Positions 3,696-62,732 of a stretch of 64,000 nucleotides of DNA are shown here, piece by piece. Made by a program: the position numbers and the translations under genes. The notes under the pieces were generated by a model that was not told the origin of the DNA, did not search any database, and saw only the letters and a list, made by a program, of their open reading frames with translations. Numbering within the stretch: position 1 is the first letter of the stretch; each line of letters starts with the position of its first letter. This DNA comes from a virus (lineage: Duplodnaviria; Heunggongvirae; Uroviricota; Caudoviricetes; Demerecviridae), in IMG/VR virus record IMGVR_UViG_2974620381_000001, positions 48,928 to 112,927 of that record; one strand, given 5' to 3'.

Positions 3696-4463
3696 TTATT
3701 CAGCAGCCGCAGCTTTTGCATCCAGTTTAGCACGCTTAGCGGCACCATCATAGTCCTTAGCAACCAGACCACGACGAGACAGCATAGATTTAACACCGCG
3801 CTCAGATTTACCAGTTTTCTCAGCGATCTCAGCAACAGTCATGTTAACCAGATCCAGACCTTCTAACAGATCTTCACGAGTTTTAGCACTTGAGGTCTCC
3901 TGTACCGGCATAGCAGCGATACGACCTTCACGAAGCAGGCTCAGAGCTTTACCACGGATCTGCTTGATATTACGACCGAAGTGAGCAGCGATAGCTTCAA
4001 TAGTAGCACCAGCAACAACCTGATTAACAAAATCAGTTTCTTCATCCGGAGTGAAGGAACGAACAGCAGCAGCTTTTTCGGTTGGTTTAACAGAAGCGGT
4101 CATTTCCAGACTCAGGATCTTACCCTGTACCTGTTTAGCACCGAACTGACCACCAGCTACAGCAGCAGCGATTTCAGCATAGGTATACTGACCAGCATGA
4201 GCGTTTAGGAAATCAACCAGTTCAGCTTCCTGCTCAGGAGTCCACGGGGATTTCTGTACTTCGTTAGCTTTCTGTACTTCAAAACCTTCTTTACGCAGTT
4301 TAGAGCCAACAGAGCGAGCAGTAACATCTTTGCCAGTTTCAGCAGCCAGTTCAGCGGCGATAGCAGCTACTTGTTCTTGAGAGATTACAGAAACACCCAG
4401 AGCAGTGGCTTTTGCTTTCAGAGACTCGGTTACACCTTCTACGTTCCAGTTCAGTTTAGACAT
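3696..4463 (-). CDS. Ala-rich putative dsDNA-binding protein (possibly D5-like, ~29 kDa)
   Basis: 255 aa, three repeated K/R-rich helix-like motifs (SKLRKEGF, GKALSLLREG, KSMLSRRGL); size and position next to helicase/ligase fit T5 D5-type protein; function not provable from sequence. Confidence 0.45.
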   Translation of the reverse strand: MSKLNWNVEGVTESLKAKATALGVSVISQEQVAAIAAELAAETGKDVTARSVGSKLRKEGFEVQKANEVQKSPWTPEQEAELVDFLNAHAGQYTYAEIAAAVAGGQFGAKQVQGKILSLEMTASVKPTEKAAAVRSFTPDEETDFVNQVVAGATIEAIAAHFGRNIKQIRGKALSLLREGRIAAMPVQETSSAKTREDLLEGLDLVNMTVAEIAEKTGKSERGVKSMLSRRGLVAKDYDGAAKRAKLDAKAAAAE

Positions 4464-5238
4464 TATTATTTTTCTCCAATAGTTCTTTAATCGACAGGAT
4501 TTCTATCCCATTCGTTTCGGCTTTCTTATAAGATGAGGAAGAACGCTTCGATTCATCCTCACAGATTAGGTATTTGACGTCTTTGGTAACGGATTTCTTA
4601 ACCGTATATCCTAGACCTTCTAAATAGTTTGTTGCATCCGTTCGATTTGCAAAATCTTGCAAAGATCCGGTAATACATACCGCGATTCCATTTGGCTGGG
4701 CAACTAATTCATCTGTAATGATGACGTCAGCTTTAGTGCCCTTAATACCAGTTGAAAATTTCCACGGTAGTTCAATAACATCCTTGCCTTGTGGGGAATT
4801 TAGCCAGGCTTTGTAATTTTCTCCAGCCTTGCCGTCAGCCTTCACATTGTGAAAGCTAGTGCAATTTTGGGATAATTTCTTTGCTGCAACCTCTCCAATT
4901 AGAGGGATTCCTAAAGAACCGAGAACTGAACCAAAGTCAATGTCTCCGCGAACTTTAGTATTTAATTCGCTAATTAACTTAGCGGCAACCTTGCTACCCA
5001 CGGCTCTAACCAAATCTTCTTCGGTTAGGTAAAATAGTTCTGAAATCTTCGTCAGCTCCAGCTTCTCAATAGTTTTTGGGCCAAAGCCCTTTAACTTCAT
5101 TTTTGAACAGAAGTTCTCAATTAACTTACTTGATTGCGCTGGACAGTTGGACTTACTCCGACAGAATAATTGTCCGTTGACAAGATCTAGCTTAGAACCA
5201 CAAGAGGGACATTGTGTTGGAATTTCGATTTTCATCAA
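4456..5238 (-). CDS. NAD-dependent DNA ligase, subunit B (C4 zinc finger + HhH + BRCT-like C-terminal half)
   Basis: 260 aa; CPSCGSKL...C zinc finger, helix-hairpin-helix GFGPKTIEKL / LGIPLIG motifs; separate gene from adenylation half. Confidence 0.75.
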   Translation of the reverse strand: MMKIEIPTQCPSCGSKLDLVNGQLFCRSKSNCPAQSSKLIENFCSKMKLKGFGPKTIEKLELTKISELFYLTEEDLVRAVGSKVAAKLISELNTKVRGDIDFGSVLGSLGIPLIGEVAAKKLSQNCTSFHNVKADGKAGENYKAWLNSPQGKDVIELPWKFSTGIKGTKADVIITDELVAQPNGIAVCITGSLQDFANRTDATNYLEGLGYTVKKSVTKDVKYLICEDESKRSSSSYKKAETNGIEILSIKELLEKNNNV

Positions 5239-5265
5239 ATTTCTTCCTTATCAATTTATATAAAT

Positions 5266-5293
5266 ATTATAGCAAGTATTTAAGCATTTAGCA
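5266..5293 (-). promoter_or_regulatory. T5-type promoter (minus strand) for ligase subunit B, inside the gap between the two ligase genes
   Basis: Reverse complement reads TTGCTA-16-TATAAT. Confidence 0.55.
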
Positions 5294-5437
5294 ACTACAA
5301 TTTTAACTAACTTTGCTTACCCTCGCCATAACTTTCTATCCCTCAACTGAATGATAATAGTATATACCTAAGCGGCGAAAATGTCAATAACCACTTTATA
5401 ATTCCGATATGGTAGATGGGTAGCAAAGGGTTATGTA

Positions 5438-6409
5438 TTAATCGTATACTCGCTCTACTATACACGGGATTACACCACCAGCACGAATCACTCGAATCTG
5501 GCAACCGATCTCTAGATCAAGAGAGTTAATATAATCAACGTTATTAAGAGTCGCTTTAACAATTGTAGCATCATCAATAATTACCGGTTCGAAATAACCA
5601 ACTGGAGTTACTTTACCAGAAGCCCCTACCTGCCATTCAACTTTAGTAAGAGTTGTAATCTCGCCTTCTTCATCCTCTTTAATAGCGAATGCTCCACGAG
5701 GGAATTTATTAGTCCAGCCTTCCCGGAAGAATTTGTTGTTGTCATTAATACGAACAACTTTACCATCCGTCGGAATCCATTTAAAGAGGGAACGTACATT
5801 AACAACTGTTAAGAAGTTCTCATTCTCTAGCCAAAGCATATCTTTTAAATATGCTTCTGTAATACCTACAGATTCAGCAGAACACTGAATACCATATGCA
5901 ACGAAGATTAAACCACCTTCCCCGATACGCTGTACGAAATCATCACTATCTTTGAGGTTAATAGCACCAGAGGCAAAGTTACGTTTATTTTCTACTTCTT
6001 TTGTAATTAGAACTTCACCAGTGATTTGAGTAGGTACTTTTTGGGAAATCTTTTTAGGGATATTCAGCAATCTTACGTTGCTTGTGACATCATTCCCTAG
6101 AATACCATTACCACGAGTTAGTGCTTGAACAAATTCTCCATTAATATATAACAGAGAAATCGCACAACCATCTAACTTATCAGTTTCTACCTGACCTAAT
6201 GGGTTAAATGGAGGTTTATCCCCACGATTATAATAAACTTTCTGTAAAGAATACATACGATACAGATGTGGAATATCACCCCTAGGCCCGATCTCTTCTT
6301 CTAACGGAAATCTTTTAATCAGACGATCATATTCTTCGTCAGAGATTAAAGACATTCCCTGGTAATATGCTTCTTGGCAACGTTTAATAAAGTCTTTTAC
6401 ATTAGTCAT
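5438..6409 (-). CDS. NAD-dependent DNA ligase, subunit A (adenylation/OB half)
   Basis: 323 aa; KxDG adenylation motif (DKLDGCAIS), NAD-ligase N-terminal Ia-like region (CQEAYYQG). Confidence 0.75.
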   Translation of the reverse strand: MTNVKDFIKRCQEAYYQGMSLISDEEYDRLIKRFPLEEEIGPRGDIPHLYRMYSLQKVYYNRGDKPPFNPLGQVETDKLDGCAISLLYINGEFVQALTRGNGILGNDVTSNVRLLNIPKKISQKVPTQITGEVLITKEVENKRNFASGAINLKDSDDFVQRIGEGGLIFVAYGIQCSAESVGITEAYLKDMLWLENENFLTVVNVRSLFKWIPTDGKVVRINDNNKFFREGWTNKFPRGAFAIKEDEEGEITTLTKVEWQVGASGKVTPVGYFEPVIIDDATIVKATLNNVDYINSLDLEIGCQIRVIRAGGVIPCIVERVYD

Positions 6410-6424
6410 TTATTTATATCTCTC

Positions 6425-6470
6425 ATTAATTTATATAAATATTATATAACAAAACTGAGTTGAAAGCAAA
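6425..6470 (-). promoter_or_regulatory. T5-type promoter (minus strand) for ligase subunit A
   Basis: Reverse complement reads TTTGCTTTCAACTCAGTTTTGTTATATAATATTTAT. Confidence 0.5.
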
Positions 6471-6496
6471 TACATTTATAAAGAAAAAGCCAAGAA

Positions 6497-6805
6497 CTAG
6501 GCATTCTTGGCTTTGAGTTCTTCAGCTCGTTTCTGTACTTCATGTAAAACCTCAGATTCACTAAGAATCTGTGTAAACGCGTAGAAAAGCTGTGATGTTG
6601 TTTCTAGGGTGTAAGGAAAAGAGAAGCCAGATTTCGTTGGAAACCATTCATCATTAATATCAAGAAGCCAGTAACGAATACCCATGTATAGATTCCCACG
6701 AAATTCAGATACTGTTAATCTTACTTGTTCTCCCTCCTTCTCCCAAAGTATGATGGACTGGTCATCAACGTGTCCTTCATAGTTTTGATTTACCTGTTCG
6801 CTCAT
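6497..6805 (-). CDS. hypothetical protein
   Basis: 102-aa ORF in minus-strand gene array. Confidence 0.45.
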   Translation of the reverse strand: MSEQVNQNYEGHVDDQSIILWEKEGEQVRLTVSEFRGNLYMGIRYWLLDINDEWFPTKSGFSFPYTLETTSQLFYAFTQILSESEVLHEVQKRAEELKAKNA

Positions 6806-8963: not shown

Positions 8964-11592
8964 CTAGCTCTGACATTGCTTCATCATGCATATGTTTTTC
9001 CTCGTCAGTCATGAACTTATAAGGAATTGGCATACACTCGATTTTACAATAGGTTCTGTACCAGTCTACAATATTTTCAGTGTTCATATCCTTACCAATA
9101 CCCATCATACCAAGATACATTCTAGCATATTTTGGGTTAGCACTCTGACCTGTTTTAAGGAAGAAGTCTTTCTTCTTACCTTTCAGAGCCTCTATGAATG
9201 GTTTAATGGTCACATTTGAACACTTCTTAATATCTTCCCAGAACATCTCGTGCATTTTATGGAAGAATGCAGCTCGATCATTCGGTTTATCCTTAATATA
9301 CTGTTCAACATGCTCAACTGTTACATCTTTAATAGACTCAAGATGATAATAACGAACAAGAAGTAGTTTAGCTTCATACGCATCCGCATGACGTGGAGCA
9401 CAATAATCCGGAGTTGAATGTAGAATAGCTTTAATTCGCTCTTCTGTGTACTCTTTACCAGCACCTTCAATAGTTCCCCAGCTTTCGCTGAAAATATCAA
9501 TAGTTGCACCCTGATCAAGCAAGTAATAACGTAAAGTACTAGTATAGTTTCTAGATTCCAACTCTCTACGACGTGCGTATAATTGCTGTGCTAACTCCAG
9601 CCAACCTTCATCAATATTATATTGTTCAGAACCTGCGGAGAATCCACTAGTGGATTTATCAATAAAATAATAGATATTTTGAGCACCACGGTCGCGCCTG
9701 ATTGCTTGGAAACGCATGTTTGGCGCTTGATTACTGGTTCTAGTAATAACAAATACATTATCGAAATAGTTAAAGTCAACACCACTCGTTACGGATGGGC
9801 TACATAATAAGCAATCAATTTGTTGATCAATTAGCTCATTAGTTGTATAATCCAGAATACGTCGAATATCCACATCTGAGGTAGAGTTTGAATGGATTTC
9901 CTTAACTAACGCACCCGTATTACGACGCAGTGCCATACCCTTCTCATTCAGCTCATCAGGACCACAATCAGATACTAGAATAGATTTCTCACCCATCTCT
10001 AGAGAAGTCTGAAGTGCAACCCAAATACTGGATTCATCAGGGAACTCATAAGCATGAGCTTTTGACAGCATCTTACGATGATGATTATAAAATGCGACAG
10101 GTTTATCAAACTCAATCAAAGAACCATATGCTTCAATTGTTTCTGCACTAATATCACCATCAGATAATATAATTATTTTCGCAGTTGCAAGAATATCCCG
10201 AAGAACCTGAATACATTCGCGACGTTGCTTAACAACCGGGGCGAATAATAGGTCATTCATTACTGCATCACATTCATCGATAAAGATTGCATCAATTTGA
10301 CCAATAAAACTCTTGAATTTATGCAAAGAGTGAATAGTTGTGGACATACGGTCAATAGCACCGCGCTTAAAATTAAGCATATCTACAGACTTATCATATT
10401 GTCCTGCACTAAATTTCTTAGCATTTGAAGATACCAGTGCTCGAGTATTGGTAATTGCTAAGAAATTACCCTTAATAACTCCCGAATCTAACCAACGCAC
10501 AACCGCCGTAGTTTTACCTGTACCTAGACTTGCTTTTACAAAAGTCATATAACCTTCTGGTGGTACAGTATTTAATTTCAAGAAGTTATCAGTCTCTAGA
10601 GAGTTAGTTTCTAGCTTTTTAAGTGGAATACCTTTTAAAACATCCGGTATATCACGTTTAGAATTATTAACAAACGCTTTCAGAGCCTGCTTACGACCGT
10701 TGTTAAAGTAGTCTTGAATATTACGACTATTATCTTTAGTTGCAATATACTCTGATAAGGCTGGGCGGATTTCTTTTTCTAGCCATGCAAAATCAACACC
10801 ATCCTCTAAAGCCCTGTGATAGAGTTTAGGAATAATACGTAGATACACTCCATCCTCAGCTTCTTCTAGTTCGCTGATAGTTTCCTCTACTTTATCAGAG
10901 GCAGCCTTTTTACCTTTAATTTGATCGAGTAAGGAGTAAAATTCCTCTTTAAACTCTCCTCTAGTTGTTTCATAGTCAACTAGATTATTAGGTAAATTTA
11001 CCTTCGAACCTTTAACAAATACCAGACGTGAAGCACCCTCCGCCTTAAACGGATCGACTATACCATCAGTAAATAAAGGATCAGCAAAGTAATGGAGCTG
11101 TACGGAAGAGTAATAAGCTAAGTCGGCAATATCAAAGCCATACTTTTGTCTACTACTTTCGTTGATAGATGTAAATAAGAACTTGATTTGACCCTGAGTT
11201 ACTTTAACATTAGATTCTAGTATTAAGTGCATTCGGATACCTGGTTTTAGGCCAGCCGAAGATGATGCATGAGCGATAAACCCTGCATCAAGAGGAAACA
11301 TATCCTCACTAATACTATTTAACATTCTAATAATATGTCGAGCCATGCCAACAAGATCAAACTTGTTACAACCACCTGTATCTACAATACCATCCACGTC
11401 CATTGCAATTATATGACTTGGGTTAGATACATTAAAGTTGCCCTTCTTACGTCGCACATTATTTTTAGGTGCAAGACATCGACCTCGTACCGCAACGATA
11501 TGAGGGTCAGACGTTAAACGTCTCATAAGAGGGAGCATTTCTACTAGGGTTTGAGGATCAACTTCATCAATTACATCAAACTTGAAGGGCAT
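8938..11592 (-). CDS. SF2 helicase with N-terminal primase-polymerase-like region; putative replication origin-binding protein
   Basis: Walker A SLGTGKTTAV, Walker B/DExx FIDECD, N-terminal AMDVDG acidic motif; in-frame ORF extends upstream to 11925 but first ~110 codons atypical, so start set at MPFKFDV (complement 11590-11592). Confidence 0.6.
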   Translation of the reverse strand: MPFKFDVIDEVDPQTLVEMLPLMRRLTSDPHIVAVRGRCLAPKNNVRRKKGNFNVSNPSHIIAMDVDGIVDTGGCNKFDLVGMARHIIRMLNSISEDMFPLDAGFIAHASSSAGLKPGIRMHLILESNVKVTQGQIKFLFTSINESSRQKYGFDIADLAYYSSVQLHYFADPLFTDGIVDPFKAEGASRLVFVKGSKVNLPNNLVDYETTRGEFKEEFYSLLDQIKGKKAASDKVEETISELEEAEDGVYLRIIPKLYHRALEDGVDFAWLEKEIRPALSEYIATKDNSRNIQDYFNNGRKQALKAFVNNSKRDIPDVLKGIPLKKLETNSLETDNFLKLNTVPPEGYMTFVKASLGTGKTTAVVRWLDSGVIKGNFLAITNTRALVSSNAKKFSAGQYDKSVDMLNFKRGAIDRMSTTIHSLHKFKSFIGQIDAIFIDECDAVMNDLLFAPVVKQRRECIQVLRDILATAKIIILSDGDISAETIEAYGSLIEFDKPVAFYNHHRKMLSKAHAYEFPDESSIWVALQTSLEMGEKSILVSDCGPDELNEKGMALRRNTGALVKEIHSNSTSDVDIRRILDYTTNELIDQQIDCLLCSPSVTSGVDFNYFDNVFVITRTSNQAPNMRFQAIRRDRGAQNIYYFIDKSTSGFSAGSEQYNIDEGWLELAQQLYARRRELESRNYTSTLRYYLLDQGATIDIFSESWGTIEGAGKEYTEERIKAILHSTPDYCAPRHADAYEAKLLLVRYYHLESIKDVTVEHVEQYIKDKPNDRAAFFHKMHEMFWEDIKKCSNVTIKPFIEALKGKKKDFFLKTGQSANPKYARMYLGMMGIGKDMNTENIVDWYRTYCKIECMPIPYKFMTDEEKHMHDEAMSELGARNDSEE

Positions 11593-50142: not shown

Positions 50143-50799
50143 TTGGAAAAGTTCTTACAATTATTAACGGTACTGCTCCAAGAAGCGAAAGATCCAGCAT
50201 CGCTTCTTAAACGTCTGCTAACTATCTTAGTTGCTGTCATTATTTTCTTATTTGTTAGTAATACTAGCGAGGTGATGTCATTCTTAAAGACTTTCTCCAC
50301 GTCTGCGGTTCTACAAGATGTTCAAACTCAAAGGATAGATAACTTTCCTAATGTAGCTAGAGAAAAGAGCATGGTACTCTTTTCTCAAACGGGTGCGGAT
50401 GCTGTTTTTGTCGTCAAGTATAAACCCGATGCCATTAATGATTATTCTAACATTATTGCATGGGAAAGCAATGCGCAATTAGATAGGGCTGACTTGGCCG
50501 ATAAAGCGGTAAATAAAACGTCTGAGCTATATAGACGTCACTTGGAAGGCTTTAACTACGCATCGGATTTAAGTGTAAAAGTAAATAAATACATGGGGTT
50601 AAATATACCTGCGTTTAAGAACGTTACTTTTAATTACATATACACTTGTCCGTATTTCAATCTAAACAATATCTATGCTGGGTATATTGGTATTGCTTGG
50701 AAAGATAATCCTGTAGATGCAGCCGATTCTGAGAAATTTAAGGAATATTTAACAAAGCTCTGTTCACCACAACAGAGATCTTTAGGTAGATCAATATGA
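50143..50799 (+). CDS. holin (putative, class III, single TM)
   Basis: 218 aa, TTG start after GAGGAGGT; one N-terminal TM; immediately upstream of and overlapping the endolysin gene. Confidence 0.55.
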   Translation: MEKFLQLLTVLLQEAKDPASLLKRLLTILVAVIIFLFVSNTSEVMSFLKTFSTSAVLQDVQTQRIDNFPNVAREKSMVLFSQTGADAVFVVKYKPDAINDYSNIIAWESNAQLDRADLADKAVNKTSELYRRHLEGFNYASDLSVKVNKYMGLNIPAFKNVTFNYIYTCPYFNLNNIYAGYIGIAWKDNPVDAADSEKFKEYLTKLCSPQQRSLGRSI

Positions 50800-59936: not shown

Positions 59937-60646
59937 TTAAAGAAGCCGAAAAATTAAAACGTCTCATTCAGTTAGCGCGTGGTGCTACACAAAAGAGCCT
60001 TTCTCAGCTAACTGATGAAGAAAAATATGCAGTAATGTTTTTAGGAGATCATTATCCTGCTAAGTGGGATAAAGGTAAGATCAAATATGATCGTGATGCA
60101 AAACGAGTAGTTTGGTCAGGCTCATATGTGGAGGTGAATAAAGCGTTGAAAGCTTTAGATCCTGAAGCAAAGGGTTTCTCTTCTAATGCTATTCATATTC
60201 TAATCGATGAAGATCTCCCAAGATTTAAGGAAGCATCATTTAAAGAAGCATTAGCTAGCGAAGATCTTATCCCTTTCAAACATGGCAAATATGCCCACCT
60301 TCCTCCACTAGAAAAAGAGAAACCAACTCTAGTTAAAGATGAAGTTTATCGTGGGATTGGCACGATGTTAGCGAGTTTGACTGTAGCTCTCCATAAAGAT
60401 CTAGAGTTAACGCCCTTAGAAAATGCTGTGCATTTCATGTGTCATAAATACGAAGATACATTTAAAGAGCTATGTAAGTCGCTAGGAATGCCAAGTTACA
60501 CGATATTAAACTACGCTCCTGAGTATACTAGAGCAGCTCGCGGAACTATGGATTACGATGATACAGGATCCACTGCTTCCTATTTAGCAACTTATATCTA
60601 CTTCGCATCCTTAGGTATCAAACTCAAATCCAAGAAGGAGGAATAA
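59933..60646 (+). CDS. hypothetical protein
   Basis: 237-aa ORF; last gene before the 1.7-kb repeat region. Confidence 0.5.
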   Translation: MIKEAEKLKRLIQLARGATQKSLSQLTDEEKYAVMFLGDHYPAKWDKGKIKYDRDAKRVVWSGSYVEVNKALKALDPEAKGFSSNAIHILIDEDLPRFKEASFKEALASEDLIPFKHGKYAHLPPLEKEKPTLVKDEVYRGIGTMLASLTVALHKDLELTPLENAVHFMCHKYEDTFKELCKSLGMPSYTILNYAPEYTRAARGTMDYDDTGSTASYLATYIYFASLGIKLKSKKEE

Positions 60647-60696
60647 AAGTTAACAAAAAGTTCTTGCATTCTCATACCCAAACATGTTATAATAAT

Positions 60697-60866
60697 CTCA
60701 TAGATTAACAACTACTCTAGTTGATTAACTCTAGGGGCGATGATTATTACACGAATGTCTCGTATAGCTTGCGGCCTAGCAACAGCGGTATGACGGCATG
60801 AGTACTCACGTAATTAATCACGCGCCCCCAGGAGAGACTCTCATGAAATTGGGGGTCTCTTTTTCT
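60697..60866 (+). ncRNA. candidate small RNA (promoter-to-terminator unit, ~170 nt, no ORF)
   Basis: Promoter TTGCAT-18-TATAAT (60664-60693); downstream GC hairpin (CCCCCAGGAGAGAC...GGGGGTCTCT) plus TTTTTCTTTAT at 60815-60866. Confidence 0.4.
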
Positions 60867-61020
60867 TTATATTATTTAAATATTTTTAATGGCAATATCT
60901 GTGTTCAAGATGATACACCTGTTGCCGTTCATCTGCTAGGATGGCACAACACTTTCTTCTAGACTCCTAAGTTTCTAGGAATAGTTGAGCACAAATTCTA
61001 GAGATCACACTAAAATATTC

Positions 61021-61757
61021 ATCGGATTTGCACATATTCTAGGGCAGTTTTCTTCTCATATTATATTCTTTAGGCCGGTTTTCCTATATAGGGCGGTTTT
61101 AGGGAGGGCGGTTATTTCTAGAAGACATTTTTCGAAAACACATTTCCAGAAATTACTGTCGGATTTGCACACTGATATTCTAGAAATTTATGGTCGGATT
61201 TGCACAAACGCCTAAGTTTTTAGGAACTCTTACTCTCCTGAAAATAGCAGCATTATTTCGGGCCGAAGGCCCATGATTGCCTGAGTTTTTAGAGCCACAG
61301 AAATTTTCACTTGTCAAGCTATTTTGCCCCATTTTGCTAATAAAATTTTACTTTATCTGCACCTATCCCAAATCTTCCCAAATTATCTCAACTCTTCCCC
61401 AAAATCCCCGCAAATCAGGTGCTCCGCACCAAACATGCGCCCCATCCTTCTAGCCCCCAAATTTCTCTCGCTCTCTCATCTTCTCCTCAAACCCACACAA
61501 TCACACACCCTCCAATCGAAGTCACAAAAATCTTGTCGGATTCGCACAAATAAACTCATGTCGGATCTGCTCATACTCTAGCTAATTCCACAGGATTGAT
61601 GCGCAGCATCGGATTGCTGGAGTTTTTAGGAAAATTCATTGTCGGATTTGCACACTATAAAAATTTTTCGGGTCGGATTTGCACACTACCAAAAATTGTC
61701 GGATTCGCACATACATGCCCGCACGTAACACCCGTGGAGCAATGTCGGATTTGCACA
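61021..61757. repeat. nine dispersed 14-bp iterons GTCGGATTTGCACA (two with 1-2 mismatches)
   Basis: Copies at 61021, 61158, 61193, 61535, 61560 (degenerate), 61641, 61672, 61698, 61744; all same orientation. Confidence 0.8.
61360..61530 (+). other. G-poor polypyrimidine (C/T/A) tract of ~170 nt
   Basis: Plus strand contains almost no G between 61360 and 61530 (ccc/ctc/tcc runs). Confidence 0.7.
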
Positions 61758-61789
61758 AAAGCGCAGGGCAATTGCCCTGCGCTAAATAC

Positions 61790-61990
61790 GAATGATAATA
61801 AGAATCATTCTCATTTAAAAAGCGGAATGAGAATGATAATAATTCGCATTTAGAAAGTGAAATGAGAATCAATCTCATTTAAGAAAGGGAATGAGAACTA
61901 TTCAAAAAGTGAAATGATTATCGGTTAGATAGTGGAATGTGAATGATAATAATTCGCATCTAAGAATGGAAGTGAGAAACACTGTTATTT
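61790..61990. repeat. array of GRAATGAGAA(T) repeats with internal palindromes
   Basis: At least six copies (cGGAATGAGAATg, tGAAATGAGAATc, gGGAATGAGAACt, tGAAATGATTATc, tGGAATGTGAATg, GGAAGTGAGAAAc); perfect palindrome AAATGAGAAT-c-ATTCTCATTT at 62298-62318. Confidence 0.7.
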
Positions 61991-61993
61991 AAG

Positions 61994-62086
61994 TTATCCA
62001 CAGACTTATCAACAGCACGATTTGATTTGACAGAATCCTAGCCATTTTGAAGCGTTATTAACAGACTTATCCACAGCTTATCCTAC
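61994..62086 (+). promoter_or_regulatory. DnaA-box cluster (2 perfect TTATCCACA + 3 one-mismatch variants) embedded in 18-bp direct repeat ACAGACTTATC[CA]ACAGC
   Basis: TTATCCACA at 61994-62002 and 62067-62075; TTATCAACA 62007-62015; TTATTAACA ~62055; TTATCCTAC 62078-62086. Confidence 0.65.
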
Positions 62087-62359
62087 TGTATAAATATACA
62101 GTATTCCTATGCAGTGAATAATTCTAATATACCGCTAAAACGTCCTGAATCGCATTCTAACGCGTTTAATTTTGGTGGGGATACTAAAACAAGGGCAAAA
62201 TTGGAGGAGGCTTAAAAATTAGTTAGCCCGCTAACGATCACACAAGGCGACACGTAACACCCTAATCATTAGCAGGCTAACCATCGCGAGCGCGGTCAAA
62301 TGAGAATCATTCTCATTTGAGAATTGGGGGCACTCCCTGGTAGTTGCGCCCCGTGATTA

Positions 62360-62554
62360 TTAGTCTGGTAGTCGATGCGTGATTTTTTCCTCCTCCCCGT
62401 AGGAATCCACCAAATGCTGATAATAACCATCGTGATCATAAATCACTTTATCATACTCGCCACGCTCGACCGCTTGCCGGTTTTCCGGCGTATCGGGCAC
62501 ATAAAAAACGTCAACCATTGTGGTAGTTTTGGTTACAACAATTTTATTGCTCAT
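62360..62554 (-). CDS. hypothetical protein
   Basis: 64-aa ORF, first gene after the repeat region, opposite orientation to early genes. Confidence 0.4.
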   Translation of the reverse strand: MSNKIVVTKTTTMVDVFYVPDTPENRQAVERGEYDKVIYDHDGYYQHLVDSYGEEEKITHRLPD

Positions 62555-62570
62555 AATAACCCCCGTTATT

Positions 62571-62732
62571 AATTATTTGCGTAAATATACGCTTGCCAAT
62601 AGTCCAGCTAGAAAGCCCGCCGGTACACCAAATGAAGCCACACCGGGAACACTAGCACCATGAGCATATAAAGCCCAGCAAATTACATAAGGCAACAACG
62701 GAAACATGCCAGCTATTAAAAACTTTTTCATT
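62571..62732 (-). CDS. small membrane peptide
   Basis: 53-aa hydrophobic ORF with GGTGG SD. Confidence 0.3.

Follow-up and report, generated by a model that had tools for sequence, protein, structure and literature searches.

Bacteriophage T5 transfers its DNA in two steps, as has been known since the 1960s, and the A2 protein, alone or with A1, is needed for the restart of transfer. The signal that stops the first step was reportedly mapped in 1987 to a repeat-rich region, T5 Repeat Region 3, the presumed injection stop signal (iss); the literature on this region includes papers by Heusterspreute in 1987, Wang in 2005 and Davison in 2015 and 2020. The T5 GenBank record (AY587007) annotates copies 1–4 of direct repeat C (DRC) and palindromes E–I at this location, in a region whose named repeats also include DRE1/2 and palindromes D and J. 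The preprint of Davison (2020) presents the region as the probable iss, notes that it is conserved and has no known function, reports DnaA boxes within it, and gives a calculated T5 shear point at coordinate 9618, which falls inside the array of repeats and palindromes. In the model proposed there, pre-existing host DNA-binding proteins recognize conserved DnaA boxes to bring about the stop, and the repeat/palindrome array is explicitly given no role. Across the literature the iss region is treated as a cis-acting DNA-transfer element and not as a transcriptional operator, and papers of 2023 and 2026 state that the stop mechanism is still not understood and that experiments on the site are lacking. 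No protein is named for the T5 array in the literature that we surveyed, to which the 1987, 2005 and 2015 papers do not belong.

Two kinds of host site are also relevant here. Footprinted operators of Fur, the ferric uptake regulator and a dimeric host repressor, show overlapping sites phased by 6 bp, and sometimes by 3 bp (Chen et al., 2007), and the long operator of the aerobactin gene iucA is an extended Fur operator, at least as it is represented in that paper (Escolar et al., 2000, via Chen et al., 2007). LexA SOS boxes of gamma-proteobacteria have the form CTGT-N8-ACAG. Below we compare a non-coding repeat region of a T5-like phage with these systems; we consider it somewhat probable (roughly 0.55) that its array, which we take to be a T5-type iss-region array, recruits host Fur.

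The NBSal005 counterpart of T5 Repeat Region 3

We analyzed a stretch of 64,000 nt, referred to below as the window, whose sequence agrees at 100% identity with that of the T5-like phage NBSal005 (Tequintavirus); the non-coding repeat region within it has matches in 457 phage records. Position 1 of record MN994504.1 (GAGCCACAGAAATTTTCAC...) corresponds to window position 61292, and the annotated genes appear a second time 110,218 bases away, marking the terminal repeat; this offset, together with BLAST matches to relatives, fixed the orientation of NBSal005 relative to T5. The non-coding stretch, 1.7 kb long (approximately 60650–62360), occupies the inner end of the long direct terminal repeat, with pre-early ORFs on its flanks, the location at which an iss region is expected. 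Genes converge on it from both sides, with plus-strand genes stopping at 60646 and minus-strand genes at 62360. Its features are as follows, with the strand given where a feature has one.

61013–61759, plus strand: nine copies of GTCGGATTTGCACA (repeat family D1), homologous to T5 “direct repeat D” (DRD)
61292: inner boundary of the direct terminal repeat, which extends rightward from there; start of MN994504.1
61760–61783: perfect GC-rich palindrome AGCGCAGGGCAA/TTGCCCTGCGCT (repeat I17), homologous by alignment to T5 palindrome J
61787–61819: Fur-like cluster 1, with TGATAATAAGAATCATTCTCA at 61793–61813 (22.0 bits) and overlapping matches at −6 and +6 bases
61828–61854: Fur-like cluster 2, with TGAGAATGATAATAATTCGCA (18.8 bits) and TGATAATAATTCGCATTTAGA (15.2 bits), 6 bases apart
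61857–61906: two weaker units, the near-palindrome AAATGAGAATCAATCTCATTT at 61860–61880 (11.2 bits) and the half-site unit AATGAGAACTATTC at 61886–61906 (9.2 bits)
61938–61958: Fur-like site TGTGAATGATAATAATTCGCA (15.7 bits), aligned with T5 DRC copy 1/palindrome E
61967–61993: degenerate unit TGGAAGTGAGAAACACTGTTATTTAAG, adjoining the DnaA boxes
61994–62075, plus strand: two pairs of DnaA-type boxes, TTATCCACA at 61994 with TTATCAACA at 62006, and TTATTAACA at 62055 with TTATCCACA at 62067
62084–62103: LexA (SOS) box-like palindrome TACTGTATAAATATACAGTA, 19/20 to consensus, homologous to T5 palindrome D
62222–62281, minus strand: long hairpin followed by a T-run (repeat I11; RNA fold), aligned with T5 9194–9213
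62296–62320: isolated perfect 12+1+12 palindrome TCAAATGAGAATcATTCTCATTTGA (repeat I20), with two overlapping Fur-like sites (15.0 and 12.8 bits)
62360–62554, minus strand: last ORF of the pre-early operon (64 aa; start 62554, stop 62360), which heads into the repeat region

Alignment of this region with T5 9150–9700 gave a mean column identity of 84%, with the annotated features in the same order: palindrome D, inverted repeats D′ and C′ (the homologues of the DnaA-type box pairs), DRC with palindromes E–I, palindrome J and DRD copy 1 are all colinear. Fur-like cluster 1 aligned with DRC copy 4/palindrome I and cluster 2 with DRC copy 3/palindromes G and H. In both phages the array is found 500–700 bp inside the boundary, within the inner end of that terminal repeat which is first to enter the cell. 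To judge from this alignment, the array is almost certainly the NBSal005 copy of the T5-type iss-region repeat/palindrome array, and the repeats and palindromes themselves were thus already described, from T5. The hairpin at 62222–62281 occupies the position of T5 palindrome C and its terminator, and is likely the terminator of the pre-early operon, rightward in T5 orientation. The phages differ in the number and arrangement of units, and T5 itself lacks an isolated palindrome after its last pre-early ORF, whereas NBSal005 and most relatives have one; since T5 carries out two-step transfer without it, this palindrome at least is not essential for the stop.

Several further correspondences emerged. 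The core GTGAGAAACACT of the degenerate unit is also present in Proteus phage PM135, and T5 palindrome J (features 9650–9668) overlaps the annotated 7.9% single-strand nick. The DRD copies, annotated as 1–9 in T5, straddle the terminal-repeat boundary; the consensus sequences of CRP, sigma-54, Fis and IHF sites fitted the DRD repeat poorly. When the region was considered as an iteron-type origin, DnaA boxes and nine DRD repeats were found, with irregular DRD spacing (25–342 bp); T5 origins lie near the genome center according to electron microscopy cited by Davison (2020).

The genes next to the array are T5-type pre-early genes, as had been proposed in a preliminary description of this DNA. 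For the three ORFs neighboring the array, PHROG families offered “unknown function” only (phrog_6973, of the function-unknown class, for ORF 62360–62554), no Pfam family was found for these three or for A2, and we did not find homology between the flanking unique gene and T5 ORF018.

Fur-like units and the adjoining LexA and DnaA boxes

A repeat search returned a 29-nt family of six copies (61793, 61828, 61857, 61938, 61967 and 62295) and an 81-nt direct repeat (61803–61883 and 61913–61993). The region had earlier been credited with at least six GRAATGAGAA units; three of these are exact (61824, 61859 and 61888, the only exact copies in the 64-kb window and all inside the interval claimed for them), and six are reached only when one mismatch and both strands are allowed, with the additional matches at 61934 and 61969 on the plus strand and 61808–61817 on the minus strand. 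Over the whole window the short motifs are not above chance (18 found versus 12.4 ± 3.6 expected in one count, 39 versus 32.8 in another), and window-wide counts of AATGAGAAT and of one-mismatch GRAATGAGAA, showing no enrichment over shuffles, were set aside as evidence. However, 8 of the 18 matches are concentrated in 61808–62319, and only this clustering and the longer units are informative, not the number of motifs in the window.

We scored the longer units with a symmetric 21-mer Fur matrix made from 17 sites in Escherichia coli K-12 Fur-regulated promoters, taking for each promoter the best consensus-like site and not footprint coordinates; in leave-one-out scoring these 17 sites had a median of 14.2 bits. 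Five window matches reached at least 14 bits, all of them within 61793–62315 (22.0, 18.8, 15.7, 15.2 and 15.0 bits), a count that overstates its statistical weight because the repeat copies are not independent. No match of at least 14 bits was found in positions 1–60600, none of 2000 column-permuted matrices attained the observed maximum score, and none of 5000 Markov-1 random sequences held two or more matches of at least 14 bits. Four of the five window sites that match TGATAATNATTATCA at 12/14 or better also fall in the repeat region.

Like clustered Fur operators (Chen et al., 2007), the array consists of overlapping sites offset by 6 bp (61787/61793/61799, 61828/61834, 61857/61863 and 62295/62301) and extending over tens to hundreds of base pairs, and its scores fall in the range of genuine sites or higher. 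Genuine Fur sites at gpmA, entC, ryhB, fecI and fhuA also include variants such as TTCTCATT and TGAGAAT, and fhuA, which encodes the T5 receptor, has a promoter Fur site with AATCATTCTC-N-TTTA in common with the phage unit. The resemblance is statistically strong, and the array units match the Fur operator at the level of genuine sites. A Zur box was considered and rejected: in a comparison by hand, only the outer AAATG...CATTT of the Zur consensus fits, while the inner 7-1-7 element scores 6/14 for Zur versus 12/14 for Fur.

Unlike clustered Fur operators, the array does not lie at a promoter, has no downstream gene and is found on the genome of a virulent phage, where its sites are predicted from sequence alone. 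We found no overlap with a repressed promoter; a promoter scan of 60600–62600 yielded only weak promoter-like matches of 9/12, 10 in all (5.4 ± 2.1 expected). We therefore do not class the array as a classical Fur-regulated operator, and suggest instead that it may bind Fur. The case for Fur is weakened because the array is not at a promoter, the site of action of all characterized Fur operators, because the units carry conserved flanks (CAC/CGC-TTTTT-AAATG) that fall outside the Fur core, and because a phage protein recognizing AATGAGA half-sites could explain both the array and a related palindrome beside the outer genome terminus. To our knowledge, T5 has not been reported to grow poorly on fur or lexA mutants.

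The LexA-like box at 62084–62103 belongs to the flank of the array and not to its repeats. Nothing else in the window matches at 15/20 or better, and an 18–19/20 box is present in each of the 21 T5-like loci for which sufficient sequence was available. T5 palindrome D (9330–9349) resembles the SOS boxes in matching their 20-bp consensus at 19/20 and in being kept in all relatives examined, and differs from them in not lying over a known promoter. The DnaA boxes of the model of Davison (2020) are present in NBSal005 at 61994–62075. Fur or LexA matches are not mentioned in that paper, from which those of 1987, 2005 and 2015 may differ; as predicted sites, the Fur-box and LexA-box matches of the iss region appear to be new here.

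Co-occurrence of the three site types across Demerecviridae

Each of the 24 distinct T5-like loci whose sequence spans the array carries 4–8 Fur-like matches of at least 14 bits. Variant sites remain Fur-like or approach the consensus (e.g., TGTAAATGATAATCATTATCA, 23.2 bits, and TGATATTGATAATCATTCTCA, 20.7 bits). Across 82 distinct phage sites, a comparison biased by the choice of sites by score, positions 3–4, which carry little Fur information, are variable, while the AAT/ATT triplets, which carry the most, are near-invariant. At the position of the isolated palindrome a Fur-like site is present in 18 of 21 T5-like loci and absent in T5.

In more distant relatives, from Klebsiella, Proteus and Vibrio, a Fur site is found 110–300 bp from the LexA box and DnaA pairs, while the A2 proteins of these phages are only 37–66% identical. 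Vibrio phages KIT04 and Ceto have kept the isolated palindrome, which forms a significant local match between NBSal005 and the Vibrio phages (29 nt, 93%); further significant matches comprise similar array palindrome units and the LexA/DnaA block, and none was found in the approximately 190 nt between the isolated palindrome and the LexA box. These comparisons show that Fur-like, LexA-like and DnaA-like sites co-occur across Demerecviridae, in phages of Escherichia, Salmonella, Klebsiella, Proteus and Vibrio.

Candidate roles of the array

The preliminary description had read the palindrome AAATGAGAAT-c-ATTCTCATTT as the operator of a dimeric regulator that controls the adjacent pre-early genes. 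We found this palindrome where it was said to be, at 62298–62318, and found that the 10+1+10 symmetry extends to a perfect 12+1+12 (TCAAATGAGAAT c ATTCTCATTTGA, 62296–62320). The symmetry fits a dimer, the palindromes have strong Fur-site scores, and Fur-like boxes resemble −10 hexamers; the promoter scan returned the 10 weak matches given above. The placement, however, was mistaken: rather than directly upstream of the ORF that begins at 62554, the palindrome lies 3′ of it, approximately 40 nt downstream of its stop codon at 62360, and this ORF is not the first minus-strand gene but the last of its operon. Because genes converge from both sides and nothing lies downstream to be controlled, the array does not serve the adjacent ORFs as a transcriptional operator. 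Nor did the proposed search for the palindrome ahead of other genes turn up a good copy anywhere in the 64-kb window: none matches at 15/20 or better, and the sole other match, at 50363, is weak. The part of NBSal005 that corresponds to the pre-early promoter region annotated in T5 (approximately 4340–6730 of the NBSal005 record) is likewise without a copy, having only LexA-like and DnaA boxes. We regard control of adjacent genes by the palindrome as scarcely credible.

For the isolated palindrome alone, its position in the 3′ untranslated stretch, between the stop codon at 62360 and the terminator hairpin at 62222–62281, is what one would expect if it acted not as a DNA site but as an RNA hairpin of the pre-early mRNA, lending it stability or marking a processing site, and it is predicted to be one of three consecutive hairpins (fold z-score −6.5 versus shuffled sequences). 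As an intrinsic terminator it was rejected, its stem being A/U-rich and followed by GACCGCGC; the terminator-like hairpin is that at 62222–62281. A role as RNA is nevertheless very improbable, given that the same sequence family forms the array beyond the terminator, that orthologues drop the perfect symmetry and keep the Fur-type bases (e.g., TGGTAATAATAATCATTCTCA, and AAATGAGAATGATTATCATTT in KIT04), and that no Rfam match below E = 0.1 was found in 60600–62600. A structural explanation for the whole array, in which cruciforms, bends or A-tracts physically stall the DNA as it passes along the tail or membrane channel and a sequence-specific protein plays no part, would suit a region so dense in palindromes and T/A-tracts; secondary structures have been raised in the literature as one possibility, and DNA bending in the spacer is noted by Davison (2020). 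Full transfer into FhuA proteoliposomes takes place in vitro, however, so the DNA alone does not stop transfer, and many half-sites and imperfect palindromes retain specific bases that structure alone would not require, which leaves this explanation quite improbable.

An alternative that we consider unlikely, but which deserves more weight, is that the palindromes and half-sites are bound or cut by a phage protein, either an A2 dimer with or without A1 or a terminase or end-binding factor, and that the likeness to Fur sites is incidental. The A2 gene lies in this terminal repeat, its product belongs to a PHROG family described as “DNA binding protein,” and Davison (2020) portrays A2 as a DNA-binding dimer and proposes that A1/A2 cleave one palindrome. 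Moreover, a related element (GATGAGAATGAGTCTCATTACCGCC), 17–40 nt in from the outer boundary of the repeat, shows conservation that reaches to the Vibrio phages, and the conserved flanks of the units beyond the Fur core would also suit such a protein. On the other hand, Salmonella and Vibrio phages with only 37–44% identity in A2 have nearly the same motif, which a conserved host factor fits better than a diverging phage protein, and variants drift toward the Fur consensus and not around a private motif. The adjoining boxes are of host type (LexA and DnaA), A2 has no recognizable fold family in Pfam or in a PDB sequence search, and the injection stop needs no phage protein synthesis, whereas restart does.

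Returning to host Fur as the protein recruited by the array, we tentatively propose, as a possibility that we hold to be less likely than not, that the iss region is a conserved landing pad whose array would be bound by Fur, its palindrome D by LexA and its DnaA boxes by DnaA, and in which the bound complex would hold or insulate the first-step DNA until A1 and A2 act. We did not find this idea in the literature searched. After entry of the first 8% of the genome, pre-existing host Fur dimers would coat the array cooperatively and LexA and DnaA would occupy the adjacent boxes, so that a nucleoprotein complex would form where first-step DNA meets second-step DNA. One can speculate that this complex, along with the three hairpins/terminators, keeps the DNA end in place or marks it while the pause lasts, that it may stop RNA polymerase from running into, and pulling on, DNA that is still outside, and that A1 and A2 then lift the block. 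A role in the stop is weakened by the consideration that proteins on the cytoplasmic side do not obviously halt DNA entry.

If the repeats are Fur boxes, the long-open question of how T5-like phages stop DNA transfer would become testable with standard tools. If the landing-pad proposal were true, the repeats would be where Fur binds within the long-sought stop signal, and a virulent phage would be making unusual use of host transcription-factor sites, for a purpose beyond transcriptional control.

Structure of the repeat array and its T5 counterpart

The 2 kb surrounding the array of repeats and palindromes at ~61790–61993 was 100% identical to Phage NBSal005 (MN994504.1, Tequintavirus, Demerecviridae), and 457 phage records matched this region, nearly all of them T5-like phages of Salmonella and Escherichia. 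The NBSal005 record (window position = record position − 48,927), which is reverse-complemented relative to the usual T5 map, contains two copies of a terminal repeat of ~10.8 kb, with annotated genes recurring at a 110,218-base offset. Because record position 1 corresponds to window 61292, the terminal repeat begins there, and the window's copy borders unique sequence in the manner of the left terminal repeat of T5 (minus-strand matches in relatives fall at ~8.5–10.5 kb). Plus-strand genes end at 60646 and a minus-strand ORF ends at 62360, and convergent genes therefore flank a 1.7-kb non-coding region, within which we located the following features:

61013–61759: homologue of T5 direct repeat D (DRD), GTCGGATTTGCACA, nine copies, three outside and six inside the terminal repeat
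61760–61783: GC-rich perfect palindrome, homologue of T5 palindrome J
61994, 62006, 62055 and 62067: DnaA boxes, identified from the sequence and a box scan

The boundary at 61292 coincides exactly with the end of a copy (61275–61292) of a three-copy repeat, GATTGCCTGAGTTTTTAG (61275, 61206, 61612), of which the copies at 61275 and 61612 come after small GC hairpins. This position may be connected with where the repeat end is generated, in a record whose termini were possibly not determined experimentally. Within the non-coding region, three TAGGGCGGTTTT-like repeats also occur at 61040–61100, in unique sequence just beyond the terminal repeat.

A preliminary description had reported at least six GRAATGAGAA units here, a number we recovered only by allowing one mismatch and both strands: the window contains three exact copies, all within 61824–61897, and 61790–61990 contains one-mismatch copies, two on the plus strand and one on the minus strand. 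Short-motif counts across the window showed no excess over chance; what stood out was the clustering and the longer units, namely a 29-nt family (6 copies) and an 81-nt direct repeat. The isolated perfect palindrome, which lies apart from the array, was confirmed and is longer than claimed (12+1+12, 62296–62320). It had been placed upstream of an ORF, which was wrong, since that ORF (62360–62554) is on the minus strand and the palindrome sits ~40 nt past its stop codon. It is flanked by a GC hairpin and a long T-run hairpin at 62222–62281, which looks like the terminator of the pre-early operon. Folding of the minus strand at 62205–62365, which follows the last pre-early ORF as its 3′ untranslated sequence, predicted three consecutive hairpins (GC-rich, palindrome, long terminator-like; −67.6 kcal/mol, z-score −6.5 versus shuffles).

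At the homologous place, the T5 annotation (AY587007) lists palindrome C (terminator), palindrome D, inverted repeats D′ and C′, copies 1–4 of direct repeat C (DRC), palindromes E to J, the major 7.9% nick and nine copies of DRD. Aligned with T5 9150–9700, the window displayed 84% column identity, with all annotated features in the same order, from which we concluded that the array is the T5 DRC and palindrome E–I array; it is almost certainly a T5-type array of the injection stop signal (iss) region. T5 lacks the isolated palindrome that NBSal005 carries. The DRD copies are irregularly spaced (25–342 bp). On the minus strand a TTTT comes after palindrome J, which thus resembles one more intrinsic terminator oriented towards the pre-early operon. 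In T5 the palindrome overlaps the single-strand nick annotated at 7.9%, at a distance of 10 nt from the first Fur-like site.

This part of T5, Repeat Region 3, is highly conserved among 25 T5-like phages, lies just left of the calculated first-step DNA shear point (T5 coordinate 9618) and is the probable iss (Davison preprint); coordinate 9618 falls inside the array. The preprint stresses the DnaA boxes and holds that one cannot guess what the many repeats and palindromes do, and papers from 2023 and 2026 note a lack of experiments on the sites concerned and a mechanism still poorly understood. The array is an already described feature, real and conserved.

Similarity to Fur, LexA and DnaA sites

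Matching to the consensus TGATAATNATTATCA at 12 or more of 14 positions gave five sites in 64 kb, four of them in the array region. We then built a symmetric 21-mer Fur matrix from 17 sites in E. coli K-12 Fur-regulated promoters (fhuA, nohD, fepA-fes, fepD-entS, fepB-entC, fur, gpmA, tonB, cirA, exbB, fecA, fecI, ryhB, bfd, mntH and yoeA; genes picked from Chen et al., 2007), which recovered the classical consensus and gave leave-one-out scores of 5.0–18.3 bits for the training sites (median 14.2). Across the whole window, five hits reached at least 14 bits, all within 61793–62315 (22.0, 18.8, 15.7, 15.2 and 15.0), and positions 1–60600 contained none at this threshold. The observed maximum was attained by none of 2000 column-permuted matrices, and none of 5000 Markov-1 sequences of the region's composition had more than one hit at or above 14 bits. 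The hits form overlapping sets with a 6-bp offset, the signature of footprinted Fur operators (Chen et al., 2007), and the Fur site of the fhuA promoter (fhuA encodes the T5 receptor) has AATCATTCTC-N-TTTA in common with the phage unit. Judged by sequence, the array units are strongly and specifically similar to Fur operators.

Two further Fur-like sites lie beyond the window. One, GGATGAGAATGAGTCTCATTACCGCC (18.8 bits; NBSal005 record 10784–10807), belongs to the family of the isolated palindrome and is 17–40 nt inward from the terminal repeat's outer boundary, beside the physical end of the genome; Vibrio phages KIT04 and Ceto retain its core, AGTCTCATTACCGCC, which Proteus phage PM135 matches less closely. 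T5 has a diverged version of this outer element and no isolated inner palindrome, a hint that the two may work as a pair. The other is a strong site within the 3′ end of dmp (5′-deoxyribonucleotidase), ~200 bp from the genome end (record 10584–10610; perfect 7-1-7 match TGATAATGATTATCA), and is conserved in T5 (227–253) and a Klebsiella phage (160–186).

Palindrome D, TACTGTATAAATATACAGTA (62084–62103), matched the LexA (SOS) box consensus at 19 of 20 positions, and nothing else in the window reached 15/20; equivalents of palindrome D matched at 18–19 positions in 21/21 T5-like loci with enough sequence, most differences being in the central spacer. A second, weaker LexA-like copy occurs close to the pre-early promoters, where the DnaA-box module is duplicated in inverted orientation (NBSal005 record 4608; T5 6135). 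Each DRD copy includes ATTTGCACA, an 8/9 match to the relaxed DnaA box TTWTNCACA, and the weak DnaA sites of the whole non-coding region may therefore far outnumber the eight counted before.

Conservation in near and distant relatives

Two pattern scans of IMG/VR provided 25 distinct T5-like segments, one too short to score. Each of the 24 scored loci had 4–8 array hits of at least 14 bits. The isolated site after the last pre-early ORF occurred in 18 of the 21 loci whose upstream sequence was long enough, and its variants remained Fur-like or were nearer consensus (TGATATTGATAATCATTCTCA, 20.7 bits; TGGTAATAATAATCATTCTCA, 22.3 bits), as was one array site variant (TGTAAATGATAATCATTATCA, 23.2 bits). 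Among 82 distinct phage sites, a comparison that is illustrative only because the sites were selected by score, variation fell at positions of low information for Fur, and the AAT/ATT triplets were nearly invariant.

With A2, a protein needed to restart DNA transfer, as a marker, we retrieved four distantly related phages (Klebsiella phage AmPh_EK80, Vibrio phages KIT04 and Ceto, and Proteus phage PM135), whose A2 displayed 37–66% identity to that of NBSal005. Past the pre-early genes, all four carried a Fur-like site and, 110–300 bp from it, a LexA-like box accompanied by pairs of DnaA boxes; the three kinds of site recur together across Demerecviridae. When NBSal005 was compared with the Vibrio phages, significant local matches covered the isolated palindrome (29 nt, 93%), similar array palindrome units and the LexA/DnaA block, while the ~190 nt between the isolated palindrome and the LexA box gave no significant match, which argues that the boxes themselves are under selection.

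Candidate proteins at the probable injection stop signal

We put the probability that Fur binds the array in a manner relevant to the phage at roughly 0.55. Host Fur dimers present before infection would bind cooperatively to the array after its arrival in the cytoplasm, beside LexA and DnaA, which would accord with a stop that needs no phage protein synthesis. More speculatively, such a complex, together with the three successive hairpins or terminators (and palindrome J with its minus-strand TTTT), might anchor or insulate the end of the first-step DNA, for example by preventing RNA polymerase from advancing into DNA still outside the cell and pulling it in, until the action of A1 and A2. 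That a Fur, LexA and DnaA complex is itself the stop signal we consider less likely than not. T5 manages without the isolated palindrome.

The proposal that the array is an operator for a dimeric regulator holds insofar as the sequence fits a Fur operator; control of the adjacent pre-early genes was rejected on strand and position, the site lying 3′ of the ORF in a convergent gene context. The AATGAGA half-sites could instead be recognized by a phage protein, A2 or A1/A2, an explanation that fits the cleavage idea of the Davison preprint and stays alive because a related element adjoins the outer terminus; a conserved gamma-proteobacterial host factor would nonetheless explain the constancy of the motif better than a phage protein diverged to ~40% identity. 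Action through DNA structure alone is unlikely because transfer is complete in vitro, and a role as an RNA hairpin is conceivable solely for the isolated copy.

Our literature search found no paper pairing T5-like phages with Fur or LexA sites, although earlier priority is possible; neither "Fur" nor "LexA" occurs in the text of the Davison preprint, which does not mention palindrome D as a LexA box. What the analysis adds is a concrete and testable suggestion as to which proteins recognize the injection-stop region of T5.
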